A DNA stretch of 64,000 nt from Candidatus Eremiobacteria bacterium (GTDB lineage: Bacteria > Vulcanimicrobiota > Vulcanimicrobiia > Vulcanimicrobiales > Vulcanimicrobiaceae), in assembly GCA_963758295.1 (NCBI GenBank), contig CAVWUU010000002.1, positions 1 to 64,000 of the forward strand, given 5' to 3'. The notes below the pieces were generated by a model. The model ran no database searches, had not been told where the DNA came from, and worked only from the letters and a program-made list of their open reading frames with translations. This document shows, piece after piece, positions 9,974 through 63,427 of this stretch. A program made the translations under genes and the position numbers. Numbering within the stretch: the first letter of the stretch is position 1; each line of letters starts with the position of its first letter.

Positions 9974-11093
9974 TGGGAACAGCTAGAGACGCCAGGAGAT
10001 CGCGTTCCACGTCGGCAGCGTGCTCCCACGTGAACGTACGGGCTAAGTCCCTCGCCTGCGAAGCGAGAAGCGAATAGGTCTCCTCATCTTTGTCAAGCAA
10101 AAGCACCGCCGCGGCAAATTGCTGAACGTTTCCCGTTTCAGCACAAATCCGTCCCTCCGGAAAAACCTCTTCAAAGATCGGCAATGCATATGTTACGCAT
10201 GGCAAGCCGGAGGCCATCGCCTCAGCCACGGCAATCGCCCAGCCCTCTTCTTTGGAAGGGAATACAAAGAGCTTCGATGCTGCGAGCAGCCGGGTGCGTT
10301 CCTGATTTGACACGTCGAGGCGGAGCGTCACAAGATCCGTAAGACACTGCGCCTCGATCAATCCGCGAATCCAAGCTTCGTACTCCGGCTCGGATCGGCC
10401 GACTATCGTAAGATGCAGTGGTCTTCCTAGTTCGCGAATCTTCACCCAAGCGTAGACGAGGTCTTCAAGACCTTTGCTCGGATGGATTCGTCCCACGAAG
10501 ATCGCGCCGCTTCGTTCGGCTTCGTGTGGTCTTTCGGACAGTGCGTGTTCTACACCGTTCGTTGTAATGGCGAAGCGGGTACGGCCGGCGACCCTCAATT
10601 CTTTCGCCAAGAGGCGGCTGCCGATTATGTATCCGCCACATGCCGATGCTATGGACCGTCCGATTGCGTCGTTGACATAGGCCAAAACATTCGTGATGAA
10701 ATTGCCGGGACGTCGTAAGGGATTTTCGGCAAAGTGCCACAGCGTTACAGCAGACCGTTTGCGGCCGAATGCGAGCGCGGGCAACGTATCGGGAATCCAA
10801 TGAGAAAGCGCGAGCAATACGTCATTTTCACGTCTTAGGCGGCGAACGAGCCACATTGCGGCAATACCGCGCCGAATCAACCCCACCGCCGAGTTCTGCG
10901 TCCCGAAATCGGGTGTGGCGACGTAAGAGGCAGCGGGAAGCGCACTAAGCAGCGCAGCTCGCGCGCTTGCCGGCGCGACAATAGTAAGCTGCACGTTTTT
11001 CCATCGACGCGCCACTTCTATGAAATGCACCACTCCACCGGCGCCGTCGATGGTAGCGGGGTTAATGCTATTTAAGACTGCGACGACACGCAT
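9960..11093 (-). CDS. Glycosyltransferase family 4
   Basis: 'FVGRIHPSKGLEDL', 'FPSKEEGWAIAVAEAMASGLPCV'. Confidence 0.92.
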   Translation of the reverse strand: MRVVAVLNSINPATIDGAGGVVHFIEVARRWKNVQLTIVAPASARAALLSALPAASYVATPDFGTQNSAVGLIRRGIAAMWLVRRLRRENDVLLALSHWIPDTLPALAFGRKRSAVTLWHFAENPLRRPGNFITNVLAYVNDAIGRSIASACGGYIIGSRLLAKELRVAGRTRFAITTNGVEHALSERPHEAERSGAIFVGRIHPSKGLEDLVYAWVKIRELGRPLHLTIVGRSEPEYEAWIRGLIEAQCLTDLVTLRLDVSNQERTRLLAASKLFVFPSKEEGWAIAVAEAMASGLPCVTYALPIFEEVFPEGRICAETGNVQQFAAAVLLLDKDEETYSLLASQARDLARTFTWEHAADVERDLLASLAVPNVPK

Positions 11094-12099: not shown

Positions 12100-13392
12100 T
12101 CAGTGGTGCAAATAGTGCCGCTGAAGGCCGCTATCGGAGGGACAGTGGAGCGCGATAGAATTCTGCTGGCCAAAGAACATGCCGGCGTATCGCGTAGCAC
12201 CCGTTTGCATCGCGGCGATTACCTCGGCCGCCTGCGATGTGTCCACGTCGTCCAACTTCAAGACGGCTGTCCGCGCGTAACGGCTGCGATGCGATGACAA
12301 GATCGGGTTGGCCGATGTAGCGACCAAGAGTGACGGCTTCAGTGAAAAAGCCGGTATCCATGACAAACGAGGTTGTGCGACCTCGACGATTGCGTCATGG
12401 TCCCGCCGGCTCGAAAGCACGTACCAGCAAAGTGTGGCGGCCGTGCCGATAAAATCTTCTCTCATGCAGAGCCGGCGCAGCCATCGCGAGCGGACCTCTC
12501 CCTCTACATCGGACAATCGAACATTAGCGGCATCTAAAGCGACAATGAGCGATGCGAAACGACCGTCGCGTTCGCGCAGGCGCGTCAGACAATCGCCGAC
12601 TAGCAGGACTCGACTTTGTCTTACGACCGGAATCACGCTTGTGCGCCCGAATCGATCGATAAAGGGCAAGAGCCATAAACTCGATTCTCGCAGTCGCAGC
12701 CTAAGAATCGATTTCAGCATGCCCCAGGAGGAGGAGGCAAGGCGGATCGAGGTTCCCTCTTGTTTGTCTGACCAAGTGGTCGGCTCTTCGTGGACGGCGA
12801 GATGCGATCGCTTCAGACGCCACAACACTTCAATATCGAAGGCGAAGTTTGCAAGCTCCAGCGAATGAGCGATTTGATCGATTGCGCTTCTTCGGAACAG
12901 TTTGGCTCCGCACTGCGTGTCGGCATAGCGCAACCCAAAAAGCCAACGGACCAACATGTTGAATGCGCGGCTCGCGAAACGTCTAGCTAACGGCTGCTGC
13001 TGTTCGATGCGCGCACCCGGCAGCCAGCGTGAACCGATCACGCCGTCGTTATGCGAAGCATTTAAAATTGCGAACAGGCGCGCAAATTCGTTGGCCGGCG
13101 TCGATCCATCGGCATCTACGAAGCCTACGTAGTCTTCCGACCCAGTCCACAGGCCGGCTCGAACGGCGCCGCCTTTTCCGATCCTCGCCGCGATCTCCAG
13201 GAGTTGCAGATTGTCGTATTGCCCTTGGAGTTGCTTGACCGTCTGGACCGTTCCATCGGTACAGCCGTTGGCTACGATCAGGATCGTGGCGCTGTCACGG
13301 AACACCGAACAATATTCCCGAACCGTAGGTTCGATACGATCCTGCTCGTTGCAAGCGGGAATGATGATTCTTAGACTATGCAATGGGGACAT
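12100..13392 (-). CDS. Polyprenol-phosphate glycosyltransferase (GT2, DPM/DPG-synthase-like) with ~175-aa C-terminal extension
   Basis: 'IIIPACNE', 'GKGGAVRAG', 'FVDADGS', 'GSRW', 'DTQCGAKLF', 'FAFDIEVL'. Confidence 0.85.
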   Translation of the reverse strand: MSPLHSLRIIIPACNEQDRIEPTVREYCSVFRDSATILIVANGCTDGTVQTVKQLQGQYDNLQLLEIAARIGKGGAVRAGLWTGSEDYVGFVDADGSTPANEFARLFAILNASHNDGVIGSRWLPGARIEQQQPLARRFASRAFNMLVRWLFGLRYADTQCGAKLFRRSAIDQIAHSLELANFAFDIEVLWRLKRSHLAVHEEPTTWSDKQEGTSIRLASSSWGMLKSILRLRLRESSLWLLPFIDRFGRTSVIPVVRQSRVLLVGDCLTRLRERDGRFASLIVALDAANVRLSDVEGEVRSRWLRRLCMREDFIGTAATLCWYVLSSRRDHDAIVEVAQPRLSWIPAFSLKPSLLVATSANPILSSHRSRYARTAVLKLDDVDTSQAAEVIAAMQTGATRYAGMFFGQQNSIALHCPSDSGLQRHYLHH

Positions 13393-14998
13393 CGCGGTTT
13401 TCCGATGGCGTTACAAGATTCTTCTCGAATTTCGCGACGATGGTACGCCACGCGAGTTCGACCTCTTCCACATTGAGGATGCGCGCTGCGGCGATAAAAA
13501 CCGCGCCGCCGATAGCGATTTGGCCGAAGAGGAACCAGGCACGCGAAATCAGCGTCGGATCGGGTGTTACGCGCAAAGCACCGATCCAGTGCAAGGCCGC
13601 ATACATCGCGCATGAACTCAATGCAATTTTAAAAATGGAGACGCCGATCGCGCCCCAATCGATTCCTCGCACCATGCGCGCGATCAAGACCACAAGCATG
13701 GCGGTTTGAAGCGTTTGACTCACGGAATTGGCCAGAAGCAGGCCGCGCGCACCGAGCGTGGGCAGCCACGTCATCGACAATAAGACGTTAAGCAAGACCG
13801 TGATTACGGAGATGGCTACGGGCCAACCCGTTTCTTTGCATGCAAAGCAGCAGCGCGTGAGGACCACATTGGCCGCTAGCGCAATTAGGCCGGCCGCAGA
13901 ATATGGCAACAGATCCGCAGTTACCGCCGTTGCCTCGGCACCGAACGTGCCGCGCTCGAACAGGGTTTGGACCATCGGATATGCGAGCACGACCAACGCG
14001 CACACCGACGGAATCGTAATCAAATTGACCAGTTTAAGTCCGGTAACGATGCTTCGCGCAAGTCCGCGGCGATTGTCACGGGCAAACTGCGCGGCTAGCA
14101 ACGGAAAGATTACCGTTGCGATAGCCGCGGCGAAAATCTGTTGCGGAAAATTCACGAGTTTCGTCGCGTAATTCATGCCCGACATGTAACCTGGCGGCAA
14201 AGTCGAGGCGAAAAAACGATCGAAGAATAACGAAATCTGCCCGGCGGCGCCGCCGATGATGATTGGCCCGAGCAGCATCCACATGCGAGCGAGGCCCGGA
14301 TGATGTAAGTCGATCGTGGGCCGGTATTTTCCGATCGAAAGAAATGCCGGCAGCTGGACGAGCATCTGTGCGATAAGGCCAAGCGCCGTTCCGTACACGA
14401 GCGCGAAGATGCCGAGGTTCTTATTTAGAGCCACCACGCACACAATGGTAATAACGTTCAGCACGACGCCGACCATGGAAGCGGAGCGGAATCGATGATA
14501 AGCATTGAGCATCGCCGAGAATACGCCGCTAAGACTTACGGCGATGATGCTGGGCATTAAACAACGCGTCATGTGAATTGCCACGCCCATTTGCGGCGCC
14601 GGAAATCCATGCGCGATGAGCGGCACGTAATACGGCGCTGCGACCCATCCCAAAATTGCGCAGACGGTAAGAATAATGGCAAGCAGGTTGACGATCGTGT
14701 TTGCGAGGTTCCACGCGCCTTCTTCATCGTGCCGCGAAAAATAGTCTGAGAACGTCGGCACCAGTGCACCGACGAGCGCACCGTTGAAAACGCCAAAAAG
14801 GATCGTCGGGATGACGGCCGCCGCGAGAAACGTGTCCATTTCCCAACGCGTCCCGTATTGCTGGGCGTTTACGACCTCGCGAAAGAACCCCAGGACGGTC
14901 GAGCCAAACGTCGCGGTCATCACAAAAAGCGTTGAACCGGCGACCGAAAGGCGCCGGCGATGCGGTTTTTGGGTGACGACGCGAAGTTGCGGCTTAAT
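13376..14998 (-). CDS. murJ: Lipid II flippase MurJ (MviN); start uncertain, probably ATT at 14998 (first canonical start is GTG at 14923)
   Basis: 'VLGFFRE', 'DTFLAA', 'ALVPTF', 'DRFFAS', 'YATKLVNFP', 'LFERGTF'; ~14 TM helices. Confidence 0.9.
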   Translation of the reverse strand: MKPQLRVVTQKPHRRRLSVAGSTLFVMTATFGSTVLGFFREVVNAQQYGTRWEMDTFLAAAVIPTILFGVFNGALVGALVPTFSDYFSRHDEEGAWNLANTIVNLLAIILTVCAILGWVAAPYYVPLIAHGFPAPQMGVAIHMTRCLMPSIIAVSLSGVFSAMLNAYHRFRSASMVGVVLNVITIVCVVALNKNLGIFALVYGTALGLIAQMLVQLPAFLSIGKYRPTIDLHHPGLARMWMLLGPIIIGGAAGQISLFFDRFFASTLPPGYMSGMNYATKLVNFPQQIFAAAIATVIFPLLAAQFARDNRRGLARSIVTGLKLVNLITIPSVCALVVLAYPMVQTLFERGTFGAEATAVTADLLPYSAAGLIALAANVVLTRCCFACKETGWPVAISVITVLLNVLLSMTWLPTLGARGLLLANSVSQTLQTAMLVVLIARMVRGIDWGAIGVSIFKIALSSCAMYAALHWIGALRVTPDPTLISRAWFLFGQIAIGGAVFIAAARILNVEEVELAWRTIVAKFEKNLVTPSENRDVPIA

Positions 14999-48580: not shown

Positions 48581-49062
48581 CTTACAGTTCTCGCTGCGGC
48601 TCGGCCTTTGGGGACCGTCGCCCGGCTTGCCGGCAATTATTCTTGGGCGTATCTTGTGCCCCCAAGCCCTCTTTGGCGCGCAACGGATTCGACGCCGTCA
48701 TTAGCCGGCTCGCTTCGTGGACGAACATGGCAACGTCGTAGACCTCGACGATTAGCTCATTCGCATCGGTAACTTCCGCTTGGATCGATCGAAAGACGCG
48801 TACCCGACACGACGATCGAGCGAATACGGTGATCCCAAAACGATAAGATCTTCACGGCAACGCGCGGAAGCCCGGCAATGATTTCACGCGCCCGGCGCGA
48901 TAGCGTCAAAGTGTCTTTGACCCACGGCGGATGATCGTGCGGCAGAAACGGTGTTTCAAGATCCGGCTCGCCGACAGCCGAAACAATCGGCTCGCTATGC
49001 GCGGTTTCGAGCGAAGCCGCAAGCGACGCAGCGCGATGTTCGCTTTCAATGCGACGAAGCAC
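48581..49062 (-). CDS. Hypothetical protein downstream of the FliA-like gene; probable frameshift near 48780
   Basis: ORF 48757-49062 overlaps the sigma-factor stop. Removing one base at GATCCA-A-GCG extends it with 'AEVTDANELIVEVYDVAMFVHEASRLM...'. Confidence 0.4.
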
Positions 49063-49723
49063 GCAAGGCCTTTCTCATACGGCTAACAGCCGCGAGATGC
49101 AATTGCGACGCGCGCTGCGGCGAGATCTGCATCGACTTCCCGATCTCGCGCAGAGAGCGATCGAAAAAATAGTGAGCGCGTACGAGCTTTTGCTGGCGCT
49201 CCGGCAGTTGCTCGATCGCTTTGTGCACCGCGGATCGTTCGAGGTTTTCGATGAACTCGCACGCCGGGTCGTTGCGCCGGTCGCGTGCGAGCGATTCGCC
49301 ATCCGGAAGCGGAGCGTCTAACGAAAGCGGTTGGGTACGATGCGCAACAAGCGTTGCCCGCGCAAATCCTGGACAAATGGCGTCCACTTCTTTCACCGAG
49401 GGCACCTCGCCGCGCTCGACCGCGATTCGATAGCGTTCAGCTTCGCCCTCACGGACGGTGCGGCGGGCGCGCTCCGAGACGGGATCCATACGTCGAATCC
49501 CGTTGAGCATGGCGCCGGCTATAACACCGCTTGCATATTGCTCGAGCGTCGGCCCGCGCGTGGGATCGAAATTGTCGACGGCCCGAATGAGGCCGATACT
49601 GCCGTCGCCCACAAGGTCGTCGACATCGACGCCGGCAACCAGCCGGCGTATGCGACGCGCAATTCGCCTTACAAGAGGAAATAGCTCGCGGATCCGGCGC
49701 TCGCGGACCGTTTCAGCGGACAC
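49046..49723 (-). CDS. fliA: FliA/WhiG (sigma-28) family RNA polymerase sigma factor
   Basis: 'PLVRRIARRI', 'DDLVGDGSIGLIRAVDNFDPTRG', 'RRMDPVS', 'SLDAPL', 'LPERQQ', 'SLREIG..MQISPQRASQLH'. Confidence 0.85.
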   Translation of the reverse strand: MSAETVRERRIRELFPLVRRIARRIRRLVAGVDVDDLVGDGSIGLIRAVDNFDPTRGPTLEQYASGVIAGAMLNGIRRMDPVSERARRTVREGEAERYRIAVERGEVPSVKEVDAICPGFARATLVAHRTQPLSLDAPLPDGESLARDRRNDPACEFIENLERSAVHKAIEQLPERQQKLVRAHYFFDRSLREIGKSMQISPQRASQLHLAAVSRMRKALRASSH

Positions 49724-49910
49724 GATCGCCCAGCTGCGCCGCAAGTGCGGCGCCAAACCCCGCTTTATCTTGCTCTGCTATCGACTGCGCCAGCGACGTG
49801 ATCCCGAACGAGGCAACGGGGTCGCCATCCTTCGCCAAGGGCGCCAGGCACTGTTCGAGTAACATCGATTCGAGCGCGGCGCCCAGGCGGTTAACTCCTA
49901 CCGTATCCAT
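49713..49910 (-). CDS. Small FlgJ rod-binding-domain-like protein (65 aa)
   Basis: 'ALESMLLEQ.L...LAQSIA...GFGAAL..QL' resembles the FlgJ N-terminal pattern; flagellar context. Confidence 0.55.
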   Translation of the reverse strand: MDTVGVNRLGAALESMLLEQCLAPLAKDGDPVASFGITSLAQSIAEQDKAGFGAALAAQLGDRVR

Positions 49911-49982: not shown

Positions 49983-50417
49983 ATGGCAAGCGCAATCAAT
50001 GCTGAGCTCCAGGCTCCGCTTAATGGATTAGAGCAGGCGTGGAAACATGGCGACGGCGCAGCCTTCGCCGAACAGTGCACCGAGGACGTCGATTTCATCA
50101 ACATCCTCGGCATGCACGTTCAAGGGCGGCCGGCTGTCGCGGAGCTTCACAACAAGATCTTCAACGGTCCGTATAGGGGCAGCACCGTTACGTTCACCAT
50201 TGAAAGTGCTCGCGCAATCGGTTCCGATGCCGTGCTTGCCATCGTGCCAGGTCATCTCGAAATTCCGGAGGGTCCGGTAAAAGGCGCCGTCTTAACGGTT
50301 GCGAGCGTTTTGCTCCTCCGCGACGGCAGCGAATGGAAGATCGCCAACTTCCACAACACCCGGCGCGATTCCACACAACCGAGTCACCTCTCCGTAATGC
50401 GCGACGCAGTTAAATAA
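49983..50417 (+). CDS. NTF2-like SnoaL / SgcJ-EcaC family protein
   Basis: 'AWKHGDGAAFAEQCTEDVDFINILG..GR', 'WKIANFHNT'; GAGGTG RBS. Confidence 0.88.
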   Translation: MASAINAELQAPLNGLEQAWKHGDGAAFAEQCTEDVDFINILGMHVQGRPAVAELHNKIFNGPYRGSTVTFTIESARAIGSDAVLAIVPGHLEIPEGPVKGAVLTVASVLLLRDGSEWKIANFHNTRRDSTQPSHLSVMRDAVK

Positions 50418-50757
50418 TATCCGCGATTGGCGCATCTCCCCTACCCGCACGACGGCAACGATCGTCTATTCGCTGAGGCCGTCATCAACAAATGGGTGCA
50501 GGTACCGTTTCCTATCATCAGCCGCCGTGCGGTCCTCATCAAGAGACACCGCATTCCATCTATCATCGTGTCCCACGTGATCAAACCCCTCGATAGGAAA
50601 TACAGAAACACGAAAGCACAATCGCGGACGCAATTGCCAAGGGCGGCCTAATGCTGGAAACTTTGCCTTCTCGACGGAACGCGAGTTAAGCGCTTTCAAA
50701 ACGCCAACGAAGCGGCCGCGAAAGCGCTGAAACGGATTTAAAACGCGAGAGCTAGTT

Positions 50758-51193
50758 ATGCCGCACATAGAGATTGACGCTAAATCATGGGGCGGGGTTT
50801 TTATTTACCCCCTTACATCCGCCATAGAAATTGAAGCCGACCCGTTGGCCGCGACATTCGCCGTTGGCTTTGTTTTTCGGCAATTGCCGGACTTGCGGTG
50901 GCTCAAAGAATCGGTCCATTTCCTCATTGAAAAAGGCGCGAGCTTTTGGCTTATTCGGGCCTGAGGCAAGTAAGGCGCATGCCGTGGTAGATGAGATCGT
51001 CGTCCGATTGAGTCTTGAAGAGACCATACTAAGCATGGACTTTGAGGACGAGCTACATAATGTCGTTCTGTCGTTCTTTGGTATTGCTCAAGGAAGCACC
51101 CAGTCGGGTGTCGACAGGTTTGCCTTTTTCGTGCCCATTTCTATGATGAGCGAGGTCGATGAATCGATAATGCAGGGACTCAATTTACGCTGA
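50758..51193 (+). CDS. Hypothetical protein split by a frameshift at the T-run near 50946 (AT-rich cargo gene)
   Basis: ORFs 50758-50964 and 50831-51193 join as '...FLIEKGASF/GLFGPEASKAHAVVDEIV...'. Ends 8 nt before a degenerate flgG tail. Confidence 0.5.
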
Positions 51194-51201
51194 ACGTTAG
51201 A

Positions 51202-51310
51202 CTAGCCGCTCTCTAGATTATTAGCAACGTCTCCTCTGCGCGCGCGGTGATCGCAACAAATCAACGCCACCGTTAGTCCGGCAGATTAACGCAACCTGCG
51301 AACCAGAGAT
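51202..51310 (-). repeat. Degenerate copy of the flgG 3' end plus shared arm (copy C)
   Basis: Minus strand reads ..VANNLESG* versus flgG IANNLQRG*. Internal deletions. GCGGTG junction and CGTTAG / GCGAAC / GAGAT arm blocks are shared with copy B. Confidence 0.65.
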
Positions 51311-51436
51311 CCATTGCTCGACATGGTAAATGGAGTCTATGCGTGTCGAGTCGCTCACACGACCGCGTTCGCTTCGCCTAAGCGTAACAGCTGCCGCTTC
51401 GTCGTGGCCGCGGTTTCATCTGCACGTTGGGCCTAC

Positions 51437-51562
51437 CTAGCCACGCTGAAGATTGTCGGCAATACGCAGCATTTGATCCTCTGCCTCGACGCCTTTAGCG
51501 GTGCATGCGAAATGCGGAGCGGAGCTCCTTCATCTTGAGATTTTCCGCTGGCGCAAAGCGCG
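51437..51562 (-). repeat. Copy of the flgG 3' end plus shared arm (copy A)
   Basis: 51437-51499 encodes AKGVEAEDQMLRIADNLQRG* (16/20 aa identical to the flgG tail), followed on + by GGTGCATGCGAAATGC... Confidence 0.9.
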
Positions 51563-51591
51563 CAAGGCTGCCGCGTCGAACACGTCATACG

Positions 51592-51906
51592 GTGAGAGAA
51601 CGCACTAGTACGAACGGGAAGGCTGCGGTGTCCTTATTCTGCGCACTGGTCTTGCTGATGATACCAGTGGTCGCGATGATAGCGCACTGGGGATTTTCGT
51701 ACGTGACCTACGGCTTGACAAATCTGCCGCTGGCGTCAGCTTCTGTCGCTGCTTCTCTTAGCATATTGGCTGCCGCACTGCTTCGTAACAGTCTCCGTAA
51801 AAGCGAACTGCGGATAATGACGATCTGCCTCATTTGGCTTATCGCTATAGTTGTTGGAGGTCTCGGCGAGACATATCTCTACCTCACCTTGGCTGGATGT
51901 TGCTAG
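51592..51906 (+). CDS. Small hypothetical membrane protein (3 TM; cargo gene)
   Basis: Three hydrophobic helices in the ORF 51505-51906; likely GTG start at 51592. Confidence 0.6.
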   Translation: MRERTSTNGKAAVSLFCALVLLMIPVVAMIAHWGFSYVTYGLTNLPLASASVAASLSILAAALLRNSLRKSELRIMTICLIWLIAIVVGGLGETYLYLTLAGCC

Positions 51907-52032
51907 CGCCCCGGCAGCTGGGCGTATCTTTCCGGATCGATTTCCTCGGTGGGCCATAGCAGGCCCACAATCGTTTTTCGAGCGTTCGCTATCGGATGAC
52001 GACTGGCGGCTGTTGATAGCCGCGATGCGCAT

Positions 52033-52170
52033 CTATCCTCGCTGCAGGTTATTCGCAATACGAAGCATCTCATCCGCGGCCTGTACGCCTTTAGCGGTGC
52101 ATACAAGATGCAGATGCACGAAGAAACGTTAGCAAGCGGTTATCGCCGGCGAACGACGCGAGATTACATA
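52033..52170 (-). repeat. Copy of the flgG 3' end plus shared arm (copy B)
   Basis: 52033-52095 encodes AKGVQAADEMLRIANNLQRG* (20/20 aa identical; 15 nt differences, all synonymous), followed on + by GGTGCATACAAGATGC... Confidence 0.95.
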
Positions 52171-52246
52171 TGTCGGGTGCGGCAGAGGCCGCAAGATACG
52201 CGAGCCGGAACGTATGATGTGCCGGGCTCTAGTAGAGGTGCCCATC

Positions 52247-54074
52247 TTGAGTGATCGAGCGCGCGCTCTTTGGCGAATCTGGCTACTGACGTTCTGCGCA
52301 TTGACCGCGCTGCTATCGATCGCGGAACTGCTTGATGTAACAGGCGCTATCGGTAAGGCCCCTTGGTATGGGTTATGGGGAGCCACTATGGGCGTCGCGG
52401 CGTCACAACCCTATATGGCCGAGGTAATGAGCATCGATCCGGGAAGAGCTTCGGATCGCGGCGGCCTTCGCCGAGGGCGACCTGCTTGACGTGCGCGCAA
52501 ACAACCTCGTCGATCGCTTCGCGATTCTAACGAATTCGGCGCAACCTCTGGCCGGGAAGACGATACTCGTCTCGGTAACGCGCGGCACCCGCCATATGCC
52601 CCTTCGCGTCGTGCCGCTCCCTGTAAACGTCATGCGGCGCTTGGATCAAATCATCGCGCCGATTGCCGTTCTCTGGCTCACGCTTTTTGCATCAGTCGTC
52701 GCGTGGCGGCGTGGGTACGTTCCCGGAAATCTTCTTCTATCGTCGGTGCTGCTTCTCACGGCGATTGTAAGCGGTGCGCCGAGCCACGGTTTTGCCGCGC
52801 CCTGGGCTTGGGCATATGTCGTCCTCGCGATCTGTGTATTTGCAGCGCCTTTAGGTGTGGCAATGTGGGCGACGTACGCAAGCGGCTTCGCGCATCCTCT
52901 TTCCCGGACACGCCGCGTCGCGCTATGGACATGCTATGTGTTCGTTGCATCTGCGGTTGTAATCGGCTGCGCCGAACTTCTAGGAACCATCACACTCTGG
53001 TTCGATCCGGTCGGCTTGTCGTTTCGGCCAATTTTGGCCCTACCAATGTTTGCAGCGATTCTGGCTGCATTGGCCTGTAGTTTACTGGCAATAGCCGAAT
53101 GCCGCGGAATCGATCGTCAGCGCGCGGCTTGGTCGCTCATTCCGTTGCCGATTGTCTATTTATCTTTGCAGGCGTTCGCCTTTATAAACTTTACATCATC
53201 ATCTTACGCCGCATACATTGGCTTTGCGTATCTCTATAGCACGCTTACGTTTATCGCGCCGCTCGCGCTTACGTACGCTGCCGTGAACCGCAGACTCATA
53301 GATCTCGGTTTTGTGTTAAACCGAACGCTGGTCTTCGCCATTGTGTCGGCGATCGTGATTGGTGCCTTTGTTGTCGCAGAGTGGGCGGCAAGCGAATGGT
53401 TCGTGAGCGCGAGTCATACGAGCAGCGTCGTCGTCGGCATGGTAGTAGCGCTGGCGCTTGGCGTGTCGATGCGCTACATTCACAGGTCTGTGGATAGCTT
53501 CGTCGATCGGGTTTTCTTTCGGAAGCGACATGAGGATGAAGCGGCGCTACGCAATTTTGCGCATGAGTCGTCATACATTACGGATCGATCGGTGTTATTG
53601 GAGCGATGCGCTCAGATCGTCCGGCAGCACACGGATACAGATGAGGTGGCGATCCTCATGCGTGGCGGATCCGGTTCATATTTGCAATATTCTAACGGGC
53701 GATCCGCCACCTCAGAGAACGACTCCGGAATCATTGCCCTGCGTGCTTGGGGCAAGCCCCTAGATTTACACGATGCAACGAATTCCGAATTGCAGGGATC
53801 TGTCGCGTTTCCGATGATGGCACGCGGTGTGCTGGTCGGGGCACTCGTCTGCGGGTCAAAAAAAGGCGGTGAGTCGTTTGCGCCTGATGAGATCGAAGCG
53901 CTCATGGCGCTTGCGCATGGCGTGGGCGTTGCGCTCGACTCTTTGAATCGCGAATCCGGCGACTCAATCGCATCGCTGCACGAAGCCGTGATCGGATTAC
54001 AAGCCAGCGTCGACACGATGCAAGAGAGTATCGCCGCTGAGTTTCGTGGATTCAGAAACCTGCTTCGACCATAA
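52247..54074 (+). CDS. Multi-pass membrane protein with PDZ-like loop and C-terminal GAF-like domain (cargo gene); frameshift near 52475
   Basis: GAGGTG RBS and TTG start; 'VMSIDPGRASDRGGLR.GD.LDV' PDZ-like segment; ~9 TM helices; 'VAFPMMARGVLVGALVCG..GESFAPDEIEALMALAHGVGVALD' GAF-like segment. Confidence 0.7.
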
Positions 54075-54075
54075 G

Positions 54076-54804
54076 CTATCCGCGCTGCAAATTGTTCGCG
54101 ATCCGCAACATCTCGTCAGCTGCCTGAACCCCCTTGGCATTTGCTTCATAGGCGCGCTGCGCGCTGAGGATTTCCATCATGGATTCGATGATGGAAACGT
54201 TGGATTGTTCGAGCATGCCGAAGCGAATTTTCGGACCGTTGTCAGTGCCGGCATTGACGTAATGCGGAGCGCCGGAATGGGGGGTGGCATAGAACAACGT
54301 TCCGCCGATGGCACGCAAGTGTTCGGGTGATGGGAACTCGGCCACGCGGATATGCGCGATGCGCTGGGTGCCTTTAGGCGTATTCACCGTAAGCATCCCG
54401 TCTTCGGCGACCGTCGCGGAAAGCGCGTCGGCGGGTATGCGAAACCCATCGAGGCGCCAACCATCGCCGTTGCGCAATGCGCCATCGGAACCGCGTGAGA
54501 ATTCACCGCCGCGGGAGTAAGCCCGATGACCGGCCGAATCGACAACGGCGAAAAATCCGGGTCCGTCTATAGCAAGATCGAAGGAGCCGCCACTCTTCTC
54601 GAGTTTGCCTTGTTTGAAGAAGACTTGTTCGCCGGTCGCGATTGTTCCGAGCCCGTTCTCGCCCGGAGCAGCGAGCGCGGCAAAGCTTTCCGACGAACCT
54701 TTGAAACCGTTCACCTCCGAGTTGGCGAGATTGTTGGCGATTACGTCGAGGTTCTTTTGTTGCGCAGCCATGCCGGTCGCGGCGGCGAAAAGCGCGCGAT
54801 CCAC
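54076..54804 (-). CDS. flgG: Flagellar basal-body rod protein FlgG-like
   Basis: 'ALFAAATGMAAQQKNLDVIANNLAN...GFK', 'DLAIDGPGFF', 'GMLEQSNV', 'AQRAYEANAKGVQAADEML'; TAGTG overlap with the upstream gene. Confidence 0.88.
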   Translation of the reverse strand: MDRALFAAATGMAAQQKNLDVIANNLANSEVNGFKGSSESFAALAAPGENGLGTIATGEQVFFKQGKLEKSGGSFDLAIDGPGFFAVVDSAGHRAYSRGGEFSRGSDGALRNGDGWRLDGFRIPADALSATVAEDGMLTVNTPKGTQRIAHIRVAEFPSPEHLRAIGGTLFYATPHSGAPHYVNAGTDNGPKIRFGMLEQSNVSIIESMMEILSAQRAYEANAKGVQAADEMLRIANNLQRG

Positions 54805-56113: not shown

Positions 56114-56986
56114 CTAACGCATGCGCCGGAAAATCGGCTGCTCTGCGACGACGTGACGGAACGCTCGCTCGTGCACGGTGTTTGCAAGCGATTCATGCTG
56201 CCCGAGCCCAAGAAACCCAAGATGCATCAGGCTGTCGAAATACAGGCGGTGCATGCGGTACTGAATCGCGCCGTTGTACAAGGGCAGAATTCCTCGGGCC
56301 ACGATGGCGTGGAATTCGTTGATCGAACCGTCTTCCACCGGATTGTGCCGCGCAAACATTACATTCTGGCGAAGACGCTGGCCCGCGACCGCAAAGCGGT
56401 CCTGAATGTCGAAATGCTGCGATAGCGGTGAAACGAGTCCCGCTTGGCGGCCAAGGGCAATTAAGTCGTTCTCCGTGCGGTGCTCGAAGACGCCTGCCTT
56501 CGCGATTGCCGCCGCAACGTCGGTAATGCACGTGGCGTAGATAATTGTCTTCTCCAGCATGCCCGCTTCATCGAGCAAAGCGGCAAGGGAGTAGGCGTCG
56601 CCGCCGGTCCCGCCTCCCGGGATCCAAATGCGCACGAACGAGTACGTCTGCAACAACGGTACGACGTGCGAAATGAAGGCCTTGAAAAAGAGCGGATCGT
56701 GGAAGAGTTCGGCGCTGCCGCCGCTCATTGACACGATGAACGACACAAGCGCGCGCTCGTCGTGCAACAGCCGGTCCTGCAGCCCCGAGATGGTGTCTAT
56801 GCCTTCTGCACGCATCGAATCGGCGATGCGCCGGCGGAGCACCGATTGGTTGAAGTTTCGGAAGTCGTAGCCGCCGTAACGCATGAGGGCGTCAAGGAAG
56901 AGCTGGAGCTCGATGTCCGCCAGTTCGTCCCTGCGGAGGTTCAACGCCGTCAATCCGGCGTCTACGCCCCCTACTTGTTCAACCAT
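56114..56986 (-). CDS. CheR-family protein-glutamate methyltransferase homologue with degenerate motifs; start uncertain
   Basis: '[18 protein letters not shown]...LRRRI', 'VRIW', 'VMFARHN', '[11 protein letters not shown]'. Confidence 0.8.
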
Positions 56987-59900
56987 ATCTTCAACAACGA
57001 CGTGAGCTGGTCGATGTCGACCGGCTTACTTACGTATTCGGAGGCGCCTGCCGCGATGCACGCGTCACGATCGCCCTTCATCGCTTTAGCAGTAAGCGCG
57101 ATGATCGGGATGTTGCTGATACGTTCCTCCGCGCGAATTCGGCGGATCGTCTCGAAGCCGTCCATTTCCGGCATCATGATGTCCATCAAAACCACGTCGA
57201 TGTCGCCGCGGGTTCGCAGCGTCGTAATGCCCTGCAGACCCGATTCCGCGCTGACGACGTCCATGCCGTAGGAACGCAATGCCGCTTCGAGGGCGAAGAT
57301 GTTGCGCGAGTCGTCGTCGACGATGAGTACGCGCTTGCTGTGCAACGACACCAGGGACGGATCGCCGCCCGACGGCGCCTTCTTCGCGCTTCCGAGATCG
57401 GCTTCGACGCGATGCAAGAAGAAGTTCAGTTCGTCGAGCAACCGCTCCGGCGCGTGTCCGTCTTTGACGATAATCGTCGATGAGAGGCGCCGCAAACGTG
57501 CTTCTTCGTCACGAGTCAGATCGCGGCCGGTATACACGATGACCGGAACGTTGCTCGAGCCCGGACGCGAGCGCATTTCTTCGATGAACGAATCGCCGGC
57601 CATATCGGGCAAGCCGAGGTCGACGACGACGCAGTCGAACGTCTGCGCCGCGAGCGCTGAAAGCGCCGCTTCGGCGGAACCGACGGCTTTGACGCTCATT
57701 TCGCCCGTTCCGATAAGATTGACCATCGCATTGAGCTGCGTCAGGTCATCTTCGACGACGAGCACGTTCTTGCCGCGATTTTCCGCAAACCCGAGCAGCC
57801 GGTCGAAGGTGTCCATCAACGCTTCTTCCGACACCGGCTTCTGCAAGTGCGCCACCGCGCCCGCTGCAATGGCGCGCTGCTGATGCTCGTCTCCGGAGAT
57901 GACGTGCACCGGAATGTGCGACGTTGCGCTCGTGCGCTTCAGACTGTCAAGTAACTGCCACCCGTCCATGTCGGGCAAGCCAACGTCGAGCGTGATGGCA
58001 TCAGGCACGTAACGGTTCGCCAGCTCGAGCGCTTCGCGCCCGTTATGCGCGACGATGCCTTTGAAGCCGCGCTCGCGTGCAAACGTGAGCAACAGTTTCG
58101 CGAACGTCGGATCGTCCTCCACGACGAGCAACGTCCGTTGATCCGGCGTGATCGTTTCGCGATCGTCCGCTTCGGTAACGGCTCGTGTAACGCGATGTTC
58201 CAGACGTTCGACCACTTCGTGCACGTGCGCGCCCGTTTGGGGACGAGCCTCGTGAACCACCGTGACCTCCGCGCGTTGCGCGGTCGCGGCGCGTTGCGCC
58301 GGGTGGAAGAGCGTGAACGTGCTGCCAACGCCGACGGCGCTTTCGACCCCGATTTCGCCGCCCAGCAAACCGGCGATTTCGCGGCTGATCGCGAGACCGA
58401 GACCGGTACCGCCGAACTTGCGCGACGTTCCCATGTCCGCTTGTTGGAACGCTTCGAAGATGACGTTGAACTTATCGCTCGGGATGCCGATGCCGGTATC
58501 CGTTACCGCGAAGGACACTGCCGGTCCGGGAACCGGCAACGTGCGGTCGTTCGTCATGCTGATGTGCAGCGTGATCGCGCCTTCGGTGGTGAACTTGAAC
58601 GCGTTGGAGAGCAGGTTCTTCAGAACTTGCTGCAAGCGCGTCGGATCTGTCACGATCGAGTTCGGCACGTCGCCGTCTCGGGCAACGACGAACTTGAGGT
58701 TCTTGTCCGCGGCGATTTGGCTGAACGTACGCTTGACTTCACGCTCGATCGAATCGATCGAAACATCCAGCAAGTCGATTGCCGTCGTTCCCGATTCGAT
58801 CTTCGAAAGGTCGAGAATGTCGTTGATAAGCGTGAGCAAATCCGTACCGGCCGAGCGAATCGTTTGCGCGAATTCGATCTGTTTGCCCGTCATGTTGCCT
58901 TCCTGGTTCTCTGCAAGCTGCTTGGAGAGAATGAGGAGCGAGTTGAGCGGCGTGCGCAACTCGTGCGACATGTTCGCGAGGAACTGCGACTTGTATTTCG
59001 ACGTAAGGGAAAGCTGCTCGGCCTTCTTTTCGAGTTCCGTTCGCGCTTCTTCGATTTCGCGCGTCCGGCGTTCGACTTCGGCGTTGCGTTCCTGAAGGAG
59101 ACGCGCCTTTTCTTCGAGCTCGTCGTTCGTCTGTTTGAGCTCGAGCTGCTGGCTTTGCAGTTCGGTCGTGAGCGACTGCGACTGCTTGAGAAGCTCCTCC
59201 GTACGCATCGACGCCGAAATCGTGTTCAGCATGACGCCGATCGACTGCATGAGTTGATCGAGGAACAGCAAGTGAATTTCGCTGAAGCGTTCGAGCGATG
59301 CGAGCTCGATGACGGCCTTGATTTCGCCTTCGAACAGCACCGGCAGTACGACCACGGACACCGCGTTCATGGAGCCGAGCCCCGAACCGATCTTGAGGTA
59401 ATCGCTCGGGACTTCCGTGAGCGCTATGCGCGCCTTCTCAACGGCACATTGCCCCACGAGGCCTTCGCCGAACGGCACGGCGCGGTTCAGGCGGCGATGA
59501 CGCGGCAACGCGTAACTTGCGATGAGTCGCAGGCTCGCCTCGCCGTCGGTCACGTCGGTCATGTAGAATCCGCCGGCCTGCGCGTTGACCAGCGGAACGA
59601 GTTCCGACATGATGAGCTGCGTGACGGCCGTAATGTCGCGCTGGCCCTGGAGCATGGAGGTAAAGCGCGCGAGGTTCGACTTGAACCAGTCTTGCTCGGT
59701 GTTCTTTCGCGTCGTGTCGCGAAGGTTCTGAATCATTTCGTTAACGTTGCGCGTCAACTCGCCGACTTCGCCGCGGGCTTCGATGTCGATCGTTCGCGAA
59801 AGGTCGCCCTTCGTAACGGCCGTCGAAACCTCGGAGATGGCGCGAATCTGGTTCGTGAGCTGCGCGGCAAGCTGGTTGACGTTATCCGTCAAGTCACGCC

Positions 59901-62900
59901 ACAAGCCGGCCGCACCAGGCACAGCGGCCTGGCCGCCGAGTTTTCCTTCGAAACCGACTTCGCGCGCAACCGTCGTAACCTGATCGGCGAACGTTGCGAG
60001 CGTGTCGATCATCCCGTTGATCGTCTCGGCGAGCTGGGCGATTTCACCGCGCGCCTGCAGCGTGAGCTTACGCTTCAGGTCGCCGTTTGCCACGCCGGTA
60101 ACGACTTCAGCAATACCGCGGACTTGGTTCGTCAAGTTGGCGGCCATCGAGTTGACGTTATCCGTCAAATCTTTCCAAACGCCGCTGACGCCCTGCACGT
60201 GCGCTTGTCCACCGAGCACGCCTTCTGAACCGACTTCACGAGCGACGCGCGTCACTTCCGATGCGAAGGCGTTGAGCTGGTCGACCATGACGTTGATCGT
60301 GTCTTTCAGCTCGGCGATTTCACCGCGAACGTCGACGGTAATCTTCTTCGACAGGTCGCCGTTTGCGACGGCGGTCGTAACCTTCGCAATGTTACGAACT
60401 TGCGACGTAAGGTTCGACGCCATGAAGTTCACGGAGTCGGTCAAGTCTTTCCACGTACCGGAAACACCGCGAACCTGCGCCTGACCGCCCAGAATACCTT
60501 CGGAGCCGACTTCACGCGCGACGCGCGTAACTTCGGAGGCGAAGGCGTTCAGCTGATCGACCATCGTGTTGACGGTGTTCTTCAGCTCGGCGATTTCACC
60601 GCGAACGTCGACGGTGATCTTCTTCGACAAGTCGCCGTTTGCAACGGCGGTCGTGACCGAAGCAATGTTACGCACCTGAGACGTCAGGTTCGACGCCATG
60701 AAGTTCACGGAGTCGGTCAAGTCTTTCCACGTACCGGAAACACCGCGGACCTCGGCCTGACCGCCGAGTTTGCCTTCGGAACCGACTTCACGGGCGACAC
60801 GCGTAACTTCTGAAGCGAACGCGTTGAGCTGGTCGACCATGACGTTGATGGTGTTCTTCAACTCGAGAATTTCGCCGCGAACGTCGACGGTGATCTTCTT
60901 CGACAAGTCGCCGTTTGCGACGGCCGTCGTGACCGACGCGATGTTACGAACTTGCGACGTCAGGTTCGACGCCATGAAGTTCACGGAGTCGGTCAAGTCT
61001 TTCCACGTGCCGCTCACGCCTTTGACGTCGGCCTGGCCGCCGAGTTTGCCTTCGGAACCGACTTCACGAGCGACGCGCGTGACTTCGGATGCGAACGCGT
61101 TCAACTGGTCGACCATGACGTTGATCGTGTTCTTGAGTTCGAGGATTTCGCCGCGAACCGGAACGGTAATCTTCTTCGACAAGTCGCCGTTGGCAACCGC
61201 AGTCGTCACTTCGGCGATGTTACGAACCTGCGACGTGAGGTTCGACGCCATGAAGTTCACGGAGTCCGTCAAGTCTTTCCACGTACCGCTGACGCCGGCA
61301 ACCTGCGCCTGGCCGCCGAGGATCCCTTCGGAACCGACTTCACGGGCGACGCGCGTGACTTCCGAAGCGAAGCCGTTGAGCTGATCGACCATGACGTTGA
61401 TCGTGTCTTTCAGCTCGGCGATTTCGCCGCGAACGTCGACGGTAATCTTCTTCGACAAGTCGCCGTTGGCAACGGCAGTCGTCACTTCGGCGATGTTACG
61501 AACCTGCGACGTGAGGTTCGACGCCATGATGTTGACCGAGTCCGTGAGATCTTTCCACGTCCCCGATACACCGCGAACGTCGGCCTGGCCGCCGAGCATG
61601 CCTTCCGATCCGACTTCGCGAGCGACGCGCGTGACTTCGGATGCGAAGGCGTTCAGCTGGTCGACCATCGTGTTGATCGTGCGTTTGAGGTCGAGAATTT
61701 CGCCTTTAACGTCGACCGTGATCTTCTTCGACAAGTCGCCGTTCGCAACGGCCGTCGTAACGTCGGCGATGTTACGAACCTGCGCGGTGAGGTTCGAAGC
61801 CATCGTGTTGACGGAGTCCGTCAAATCTTTCCACGTACCGGCGACACCTTGCACCTCGGCTTGTCCGCCGAGCTTGCCTTCCGAGCCCACTTCGCGAGCG
61901 ACGCGCGTGACTTCCGACGCGAAGCCGTTCAACTGGTCGACCATCGTGTTGACGGTGTTTTTCAGTTCGAGAATTTCGCCCTTAACGTCGACCGTGATCT
62001 TCTTCGACAAGTCGCCGCGAGCAACGGCCGTCGTGACTTCGGCGATGTTACGAACCTGCGACGTCAGGTTACCGGCCATGGTGTTCACCGAGTCGGTGAG
62101 ATCTTTCCACGTACCGGCGACGCCTTCGACGGCCGCCTGACCGCCGAGTTTTCCTTCGGAGCCGACTTCGCGAGCGACGCGCGTAACTTCCGACGCGAAC
62201 GCGTTCAGCTGGTCGACCATGACGTTGATGGTGTCTTTGAGCTCGGCGATTTCGCCGCGAACGTCGACGGTGATCTTCTTCGACAAGTCGCCGCGAGCAA
62301 CGGCCGTAGTAACGTCGGCGATGTTACGAACCTGCGCCGTAAGGTTACCGGCCATCGTGTTCACCGAGTCGGTGAGATCTTTCCACGTTCCGGCGACGCC
62401 CGTGACCTGCGCCTGGCCGCCGAGGATACCTTCGGAACCCACTTCGCGAGCAACGCGCGTAACTTCGGATGCGAAGGCGTTTAGCTGGTCGACCATCGTG
62501 TTGATGGTGCCTTTGAGCTGGCGAATTTCGCCGCGCGCTTCGACCGTAATTTTCTTTGAAAGATCGCCGTTGGCGACGGCGGTCGTCACTTCAGCGATGT
62601 TACGAACCTGCGCCGTCAGGTTACCGGCCATCGTGTTCACCGAGTCGGTGAGGTCTTTCCACGTACCGGCCACGCCCTTCACGAGCGCCTGTCCGCCGAG
62701 CTTTCCTTCGGAACCGACTTCGCGCGCGACGCGCGTCACTTCGGACGCGAAGCCGTTCAACCGATCGACCATTGTGTTGATCGTGCGGCTCGACTTTAAA
62801 AACTCGCCTTTGAGCGGATGATTCTCGGTCTCCAGCGGCATTCGTTGACTCAAGTCACCATTGGCGACCGCGCCGAGCACACGGCCAGCTTCCGACATCG

Positions 62901-63234
62901 GGAAAACGAGATCGTCGACCAGTTGGTTGACCGACTCGATGCAACCGCGCCACGCACCCTTCGCGCCTTCCGAACCCGCGCGCTTGCCGATTTGGCCTTC
63001 GCGCCCAACCACCTCACTGATACGTCCGAGCTCTTGATGCAGTTCTTGACCGTGTCCGATACAATCGTTGAATGCCTGTGCGATCTCACCGTCGATTCCG
63101 GTGAGATTTCCGGGCAAGCGCACGCTAAAATCACCGTCGCGCGCGGCTCGCAAAGCAGCAAGCAGAGCCGTCATTCTAAGACGGCCCGGCTCCGAATCGT
63201 GCGGTTCGGTGGGCTCAATAGTGACTGTCGACAT
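56971..63234 (-). CDS. Soluble poly-HAMP hybrid histidine kinase (HAMP repeats, GAF, HisKA, HATPase, 3 receiver domains)
   Basis: ~12 tandem 92-aa units '[51 protein letters not shown]'; '[15 protein letters not shown]'; N/G1/F/G2 boxes; three REC domains. Confidence 0.95.
59700..62990 (-). repeat. Intragenic 276-bp tandem repeats encoding the HAMP units
   Basis: TCTTTCCACGT-like motif recurs every 276 bp (e.g. ~60446, 60722, 60998, 61274). Confidence 0.9.
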
Positions 63235-63427
63235 CCTGCGCAGGTGCCTCCAACGATTCAATTAGACGGACAAAGCCGAGGCTGTGGTCAGAAGACTCAC
63301 CCTCGGTCAGCATGCACGGTTTTACCCTAATGTCTCGTGAAATGAAACAGGCAAGCGGGAAAAAGCTTACGTTTGAACTTGCAAGCAGCCAGGGCATACT
63401 GCCTGTAGCGTTCCCGCGAGGTTTTAT

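Follow-up and report, generated by a model that had tools for sequence, protein, structure and literature searches.

Displaced copies of the flgG 3′ end delimit small gene cassettes in uncultured Vulcanimicrobiota and may mark the attachment site of a large serine recombinase

The stretch of DNA analysed here (the window) comprises 64,000 nucleotides of Candidatus Eremiobacteria bacterium (assembly GCA_963758295.1, contig CAVWUU010000002.1, positions 1–64,000, forward strand); the assembly measures 3.03 Mb and is 82% complete. It contains the flagellar rod gene flgG, for which full-length matches are found in 40 of 41 relatives and whose 3′ end, AKGVQAADEMLRIANNLQRG with the stop codon, lies at 54138–54076. 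Downstream of flgG the last 20 codons of the gene (the tail) occur again, each time next to a short conserved sequence that is not part of flgG (the arm), and small genes antisense to flgG lie between the copies. The live tail of flgG is called tail A and the displaced ones B and C; the stretch from tail A through arm B is referred to as cassette 1 and that from tail B through arm C as cassette 2. The coordinates are presented in Table 1.

A tblastn search of the whole assembly with the 20-residue tail gives three matches below E 1e-5: the gene itself, tail B (52095–52036, 20 of 20 residues, E 3.8e-8) and tail C (51499–51440, 16 of 20 residues, E 5.7e-6); the next-best match has E 1.2. Of the 63 bases of tail B, 15 are different from those of the live tail, and all 15 changes are synonymous. 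An 82-nt repeat common to B and C (78% identity) extends about 19–21 nt past the tail into non-flgG sequence. A DNA profile of arm and tail, built from 34 units that all come from genomes other than the window's, matches B (E 2.6e-22) and C (E 3.8e-17) with the arm and the live tail (E 3.6e-16) without it, the next match in the genome having E 0.005. Both the extra copies and their switch to a shared arm had been described in a first reading of this DNA without database searches (the original prediction), and both searches bear them out. That reading counted four copies. The fourth is possible but unproven: it is the sole match when the profile search is limited to the 1.56 kb below copy C (5.0 bits, E 0.025), is at chance level genome-wide in tblastn (E 55) and is absent from the genome profile search. 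Tail decay in the window grows down the stack. A remnant of the original tail was also suspected by eye just upstream of the small open reading frame (ORF) at 49910, and the profile does not detect it.

The distribution of these units was surveyed in 348 genomes of the family Baltobacteraceae (Vulcanimicrobiota/Eremiobacterota), a family of uncultured soil bacteria; genomes, contigs and loci carry the handles G, C and L, respectively. When 20 flgG loci are fetched regardless of arrays, with about 11 kb downstream where the contig allows, extra downstream tails are found in four (G003, G001, G012 and G014). The remaining loci have no extra tail within the stretch fetched, which in G002 reads N. 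In this genome, of the same genus as that of the window, the locus (L038, G002:C16) is N from about 12091 downward, exactly where the tails begin in flgG. An arm pattern with up to two mismatches is matched in 49 of the 348 genomes, and the reversed pattern, used as a control, also has many single matches; among the first 30 pattern-match loci, 23 have a tail directly after the arm and seven have unrelated sequence. A search with an 84-nt single unit, in which at most two candidates were scored per genome, gives a match in 285 of the 348 genomes (mostly the live tail alone), two matches in 43 genomes and an arm-inclusive match in 34 genomes among the matches listed. With the addition of G000 (the window genome), G001, G012, G014 and G245, these 34 bring the genomes with a displaced arm and tail downstream of flgG to at least 39 of 348. 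The tallies take in genomes flagged as unpublished (G004, G013, G024, G036, G209, G219, G241, G243, G244, G260, G313 and G327), two of which (G241 and G260) are among the 43 with two matches; no individually described locus comes from a flagged genome. The largest stack contains six tails in 5.5 kb (L085), the spacings are 0.6–2 kb, and dozens of independent assemblies have the same architecture, some of them with contigs of 1.8 to 3.6 Mb. In a wide genome collection, paired-arm loci among the matches listed are only of Vulcanimicrobiota type (Vulcanimicrobiota/Candidatus Eremiobacteraeota, Candidatus Baltobacteraceae, Ca. Cybelea and Ca. Tumulicola), and single arm-pattern matches in other phyla look like chance. 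Relatives, which the original prediction had proposed to compare, thus possess the same units at flgG with different cargo, and some possess none.

Based on an alignment of 40 displaced copies, the arm is conserved over exactly 21 nt and not beyond (C-R-T-C-K-G-C-W-T-T-T-Y-R-T-A-T-G-C-A-C-N). Homology to flgG ends at the same base in all copies and the shared arm follows. Live genes always have GCN as the first tail codon and displaced copies mostly CCT, which places the exchange point at the AA of the next codon, for Lys, or directly after it; in the window the crossover would then fall at 54135–54134, and by this model tail A came in with cassette 1. A native-type tail is present on flgG and at each level in every stack, and some internal copies are decayed (L087, L088, L096 and L100, besides C and the possible fourth copy, D, in the window). 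The in-frame open stretch upstream of the displaced tails has a median of 18.5 codons and 15 of the 40 copies have no start codon upstream; the copies therefore do not extend into longer flgG frames and are not the ends of decayed flgG paralogues. The same figures rule out, as a general feature, a small peptide ending in the tail.

Some further traits of the units are as follows. Two displaced units in genomes of different genera (L085 5341 and L087 11152) have a hybrid arm, with the outer 14 nt of arm type and the inner 7 nt of flgG type (…AGCCAAC), as if the exchange had occurred 7–10 nt further left. A motif outside the 21-nt arm, AGTGCCTC..., is found 35–45 nt upstream of the tails in L096, L097, L103 and L088, which have different cargo; it hints at a longer common right-end module, maybe with the ribosome-binding site of the cargo. 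A hairpin or attC-like structure was considered and dropped: arm and tail are complementary at 10.0 of 21 positions within the same junction, 10.7 within the same cassette and 10.3 between genomes (native flank 6.4), without covariation. A promoter scan of arm and tail for the antisense cargo gives four consensus sites against 2.4 ± 1.5, which is background level. The flgG matches of L050 (G014, 12259–12979) and L099 (G155, 9490–10211) are in two pieces, which suggests frameshifts in the rod gene.

Concerning the enzyme, the original prediction had proposed to look for loci where a recombinase gene sits next to the arm, and in three relatives, though not in the window genome, a gene for a large serine recombinase (LSR) does so. 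In G149, flgG has a divergent end (AKAVQTKSQQMALRLQR...), followed by a 13-kb insert, beyond which come the arm and a perfect tail. A 620-aa ORF that begins at the arm, antisense to flgG, encodes Resolvase, Recombinase and Zn_ribbon_recom domains; the insert also contains a methylase–endonuclease fusion, a regulator with helix-turn-helix (HTH) and peptidase_M78 domains and a second resolvase-type gene. At this locus (L230, G149:C1:1571500-1587500) the fusion of a DNA methylase with an Mrr-type endonuclease and the HTH-peptidase_M78 (ImmA/IrrE-type) gene are located at 7601–9223 and 12398–13507, respectively, and the insert looks more like a small integrative element with defence genes than like a phage. 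Homologues of the LSR with at least 61% identity are found in four of the 348 genomes (G149, G115, G079, with one in-frame TGA, and G103), all of which have an arm match. The gene starts no more than about 40 nt from the arm in G149, G115 and G079. In G103 it lies directly after flgG at the other junction, and the arm and tail are on another contig; here (L235, G103:C222, 6456–8982) the gene is on the same strand as flgG, on the attL side, opposite to the other three, and the element body seems to lie the other way round with respect to the central dinucleotide of an attP that is almost symmetric. The LSRs of G068 and G104 (37% and 31% identity) were rejected as candidates, being near neither flgG nor arm units. 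The best NCBIfam model for the G149 recombinase is CcrB, at 116 bits against a cut-off of 900 (CcrC: 82 against 900), and its relatives in the PDB are fragments of TP901-1, SPbeta and TnpX.

In G149, G079 and G103, the sequence into which flgG runs past the central AA repeats the arm of the same element imperfectly in inverted orientation (about 19–20 of 25 positions). This implies an attP of the form P-AA-P′, in which the arm is most likely the P half-site of the LSR and the arm and tail together an attR-type junction. The flgG ends of the three sequenced elements (AKAVQTKSQ..., AKGVHIKRQ... and AKGVQTTRQ...) are of a poor P′ type. When both half-sites are read from the AA towards the outside, arm and tail have 6.42 of the inner 12 nt in common (3.15 ± 0.85 in shuffles); the outer 8-nt motif of the tail is found again in the arm, displaced outward by exactly 4 nt (4.83 of 8 matching, compared with 1.05–2.75 at other shifts). 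A free-end global alignment was uninformative (4.64 against 3.55 ± 1.45), and the fixed-register comparison was used instead. In the case described by Rutherford et al. (2013, PMC3783163), the outer (zinc-domain) motif lies nearer the centre in attB half-sites than in attP half-sites, the shift being 5 bp; the 4-nt outward shift of the arm motif fits this rule.

The cassettes contain genes of the Pfam families SnoaL/DUF4440, glyoxalase/VOC, cupin, alpha/beta hydrolase, GAF (membrane proteins), RidA, RibD_C, NmrA, GNAT, AHSA1 with an ArsR-type HTH, and DUF4760. Most in-cassette cargo ORFs that reach the Pfam gathering score are antisense to flgG (21 of 25), and no small cassette contains a recombinase according to Pfam. 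Two units appear in more than one context. The tail with the RidA gene is 90.6% identical over 522 nt between L102 and L104, where the flanks are 72–76% identical; the similarity of the RidA unit begins 3 nt into the tail in both, and the unit is second in L102, below an extra cassette, and first in L104. In genomes of two genera, a 1095-nt unit of tail and alpha/beta-hydrolase gene has 90.2% identity, with flanks at 72–74%. A third cargo segment, a glyoxalase gene shared by two genera without its tail, is 91–94% identical and likewise far above the genomic background. In G001, the GAF gene that comes first in the window lies beneath a cupin cassette and another gene (449 aa, DUF4440). The cupin on GAF and the extra cassette on RidA are nested comparisons that agree with the proposal that the newest cassette lies next to flgG, though turnover is not confined to the top.

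There is also evidence of purifying selection on the displaced tails. When 28 intact copies are compared with the live tail of their own genome, four copies with internal stops being left out, 273 synonymous and 33 nonsynonymous differences are found (proportions of differing sites, pS 0.74 and pN 0.027). Tail B encodes all 20 residues in both the window and G003, and the two differ at 11 of 57 compared positions, all 11 of which we read as synonymous. The non-coding DNA next to tail B cannot be aligned between the two genomes; the arm still can. If the two tail B copies are orthologous, the displaced tails would be under protein-level selection, a possible reason being re-use after the upper cassettes have been stripped.

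Taken together, we consider it reasonably probable that an LSR uses the 3′ end of flgG as its attB and that a stack of attR-type junctions separates small cassettes which it moves in trans. The attB would be the flgG 3′ end around the codons for ...EAN-AKGVQAAD..., and the LSR would be encoded on an integrative element of Baltobacteraceae. After integration flgG would read into element DNA, and the old tail would be left downstream behind the 21-nt P half-site. Each cassette would be made up of a tail, one gene, in most cases antisense, and an arm, with a fully functional, synonymously recoded flgG tail on the flgG-proximal side. We infer that the LSR makes all junctions and that the small cassettes are moved in trans. 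A circle with arm and tail has an attR-type site, which an integrase alone should not insert into attB according to the account in PMC3783163; this counts against direct insertion and favours a route in which the cassettes hitch-hike. An LSR element would integrate on top of the stack, would be excised with a directionality factor through a deeper arm and tail junction, taking the upper cassettes along, and would be delivered into the flgG of another host; its later precise exit would join flgG to the native-type tail of a cassette. The recoded tails would then be former host tails from diverged lineages. Such a route would explain the native-type tails at every level, the synonymous saturation, the growth at the top and the rarity of the enzyme.

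Several further observations weigh against this reading. No serine recombinase (PF00239) is found in the window genome (82% complete), so that its stack would be static at present. The LSR is present in only four of the 348 genomes and none of the four has small cassettes below the element, so that only the shared arm links the LSR to the small cassettes. No intermediate of the proposed hitch-hiking route is seen. Among metagenome contigs, an alignment search with the LSR gives one partial relative (52%) at a contig end and otherwise distant ones; among viral contigs, the best relative of the LSR has 33% identity across the N-terminus and none of the seven arm-pattern matches has a tail. Arm and tail do not covary, and a passive scar would not keep the protein sequence of tail B. 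In cassette 1 the window and G003 are collinear, at 76% from flgF through the GAF gene, but their second cassettes differ; insertion at the top only fails to explain this swap under a shared cassette. A relative of about 90% identity, in a public run that contains a twentieth of the sampled words and is represented by contigs, covers 52039–54163 with cassette 1, arm B and tail B. It departs from the window at the final codon of this tail, which insertion at the top only does not explain either; its contigs contain no alternative joints and no circles, though contigs from one run cannot show rare forms. Finally, a glyoxalase gene 91–94% identical is shared by two genera without the tail. The cassette 2 difference and the divergence after tail B mean that turnover takes place inside the stacks as well, probably by homologous recombination through long shared genes or tails.

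Two alternatives have to be weighed, both of which we regard as unlikely. The first is that the interval between flgG and fliA is a hot spot of homologous recombination after DNA uptake, with tails serving as portable homology and arms as relics of one or a few old LSR events. Breakpoints that lie off the inferred crossover, as at the last codon of tail B in the relative of about 90% identity, would be expected, as would the sharing of the glyoxalase gene without tail or arm and the replacement of cassette 2 between long homologous genes. However, the tails differ at 8–18 of 57 bases and offer few long identical runs for RecA, the arm is kept to 21 nt in 40 copies from many genera and can be aligned between the window and G003 where the neighbouring non-coding DNA cannot, and two unit boundaries lie at or beside the crossover. 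The second is that the stacks are the eroded remains of successive full-size LSR elements, which lost the recombinase and most genes by deletion and are not mobile units. Full-size elements (about 13 kb in G149) do sit at the same site, and the decayed internal copies and the frameshifted GAF gene of cassette 1 point the same way. Yet the LSR elements leave a poor P′-type tail and the stacks have native-type tails throughout; an attL junction is not attB, so repeated integration would require such tails. Also, the cargo beside the arm is diverse and no recombinase remnants are seen there, and units that include the tail are 90% identical across genera, against 72–76% in the flanks.

A true integron- or Xer-type system, in which cassette insertion is the work of IntI or the host Xer and the units correspond to attC or dif sites, appears very unlikely. 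The single-gene, mostly co-oriented cassettes and their integron-like cargo (glyoxalase, GNAT, SnoaL and cupin) would suit it, and the only intact recombinase found in the window genome is Xer-like: PF00589 is present there in this gene and in a frameshifted integrase, both on other contigs. The latter is of the phage type (G000:C1:650761-651293) and is unrelated to the flgG locus. No IntI is found in the window genome, and the neighbours of the arrays are flagellar genes. The units keep their sequence and have only weak dyad symmetry, arm and tail pair at 10 of 21 positions without covariation, the arm adjoins the LSR gene, and the inverted repeat of the arm is on the other side of the LSR elements. 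By eye, the arm does not resemble the E. coli dif sequence.

Decayed flgG paralogue ends, tandem duplications or assembly artefacts can be dismissed: a second rod-gene pair of about 40% identity does exist, but homology stops at the same base before a shared arm, there is no long upstream frame, and dozens of independent assemblies contain the units. This flgF/flgG-like pair (G000:C4:9696-11077, 35–40% identical) also occurs elsewhere in most relatives' genomes, and the profile search of the window genome finds no arm and tail unit at it.

Systems in which an element supplies a substitute gene 3′ end and displaces the old one are well known, namely e14 and phage 21 at icd and islands at tRNA and tmRNA genes, and tandem arrays are known at tRNA genes. 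The units described here share this trait with them; these elements differ in that each carries a tyrosine integrase and measures kilobases to tens of kilobases. Compared with integrons, the cassettes are likewise small, mostly single-gene, co-oriented and recombinase-less, are located at one fixed site, grow at the proximal end and carry similar kinds of cargo. In contrast, there is no IntI, no attC-type folded site and no identified Pc promoter, the enzyme is a serine and not a tyrosine recombinase, the site of attachment is within coding sequence, and no cassette can do without a functional gene end. The integron-like behaviour proposed in the original prediction thus holds for the outcome and not for the enzyme linked to the arm or for the units. 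In other respects that interpretation is supported, the enzyme being a probable LSR.

By analogy, enzyme class and logic appear closest to the staphylococcal cassette chromosome (SCC) elements at rlmH. As in SCC and SCCmec, an LSR targets the 3′ end of a conserved housekeeping gene with the frame kept, elements pile up in tandem between repeats of the gene end, recombinase-less ones included (as found here), and the best NCBIfam model for the recombinase is CcrB. In staphylococci, neighbours without ccr genes are excised by the recombinase of another element, as reported by Hossain et al. (2024, PMC11470126). Unlike in SCC, the target is flgG and not rlmH, the G149 recombinase is far below the Ccr cut-off and not a Ccr, and the host belongs to an uncultured soil phylum. 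The cassettes carry 20 codons of the gene end, with most synonymous sites recoded, and have one gene in 0.6–2 kb, whereas SCCmec typically measures 24–68 kb (PMC11470126). Concerning the serine integrases of phages and integrative and conjugative elements (A118/LI, phiC31, Bxb1 and SPbeta), the quasi-palindromic attP with the recombinase gene beside it is a common trait; so are the shorter attB with its outer motif shifted inward and integration inside a gene (PMC3783163). Without a directionality factor their hybrid sites are inactive, and these sites do not build up into stacks, whereas here as many as six attR-type junctions follow one another and an attB-like site is always regained on the flgG side.

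More tentatively, and with less than even confidence, the arrays could be a serine-recombinase counterpart of integrons, a family-wide capture platform whose unit is a portable flgG tail, one gene and a P half-site. The tails would be former host gene ends that double as B′-type half-sites, and each insertion would restore an attB-like site for re-use. The rare LSR element would ferry cassettes between genera via alternative attR-type junctions, and displaced tails would be selected because stripping returns them to service. The finding as a whole would add a second enzyme class and a second logic for gene capture in cassette arrays, until now the preserve of integrons, and it gives the Vulcanimicrobiota/Eremiobacterota, a phylum with almost no genetics, a testable pair of attachment sites and a candidate recombinase. 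It also raises the question of how attR-type junctions accumulate and recombinase-less units move under rules of serine integrases that normally forbid both. It further provides a natural case of a mobile unit obliged to carry a working, recoded piece of a gene for an essential structure, in which selection on DNA with a double role, as binding site and as coding sequence, could be studied cleanly. A literature search, in which subscription journals are mostly uncovered, gave no paper tying flgG to a serine-recombinase site or describing such a system in Eremiobacterota.

Table 1. Features of the flgG locus in the window
Feature	Position	Strand	Basis and remarks
flgG (distal rod protein), 243 aa	54076–54807	minus	Pfam Flg_bb_rod, LlgE_F_G_D1, Flg_bbr_C
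Tail A, live last 20 codons and stop	54076–54138	minus	tblastn, DNA profile
Cassette 1 cargo, membrane protein with C-terminal GAF domain	52214–54074	plus	Pfam GAF, 37.5 bits; antisense to flgG
Arm B, 21-nt conserved non-flgG motif	52096–52116	minus	Repeat comparison, DNA profile; most likely P half-site of the LSR attP
Tail B, displaced flgG tail, 20/20 aa	52033–52095	minus	tblastn, DNA profile
Cassette 2 cargo, ORF of up to 133 aa	51505–51906	plus	No family; hydrophobic-looking on reading
Arm C, 21-nt non-flgG motif	51500–51520	minus	Repeat comparison, DNA profile
Tail C, displaced tail, 16/20 aa	51437–51499	minus	tblastn, DNA profile
Possible decayed fourth tail (…VANNLESG and stop)	51203–51239	minus	Local E 0.025, 7-nt gap relative to the profile
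ORFs without family	50427–50651; 50758–50964 and 50831–51193 (two frames)	plus	Library scans (see text)
SnoaL/DUF4440 (SgcJ/EcaC family) gene	49983–50417	plus	Pfam/NCBIfam; antisense; outside the interval of the original prediction
Right flank, small ORF, no family	49713–49910	minus	Conserved flank
Right flank, FliA-type sigma factor	49046–49756	minus	Pfam

The plus-strand genes between the copies, reported in the original prediction, are present, and one of them (52491–54074) has its stop codon 1 nt from that of flgG; the gene given there as 52247–54074 is in fact two frames. These are 52214–52489 and 52491–54074, with the frame change at 52489–52491, due to either a frameshift or an assembly error. 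Array cargo was clustered across 22 arrays, and both pieces cluster with the GAF cargo of G003, G001, G064, G084 and G212, the full-length relative in G003 having 663 aa; the GAF region is collinear with that of G003 at 76%. The cassette 2 ORF, whose true start probably lies inside the listed ORF, has no family and no homologue among the 22 arrays, and a terminator-like hairpin is found in this cassette at 51949–51968. Further down, neither 50758–50964 nor 50831–51193 belongs to a Pfam family, the latter also having none in NCBIfam, and 50427–50651 has none in NCBIfam, the sole library scanned for that ORF; the ORFs at 50427–51193 are possibly old, decaying cargo. The SnoaL/DUF4440 gene is collinear with G003 and belongs to the commonest family of array cargo (a 12-member cluster). 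A sigma-factor gene comes after the last tail in 12 of the 22 arrays.

On the other side of flgG, a 2096-aa ORF (56971–63261, minus strand) contains more than 12 near-identical tandem repeats of about 90 aa. By eye, these resemble HAMP-type linkers and are followed by GAF-, histidine-kinase- and several receiver-like modules, so that the protein looks like an unusually long repeat sensor kinase.

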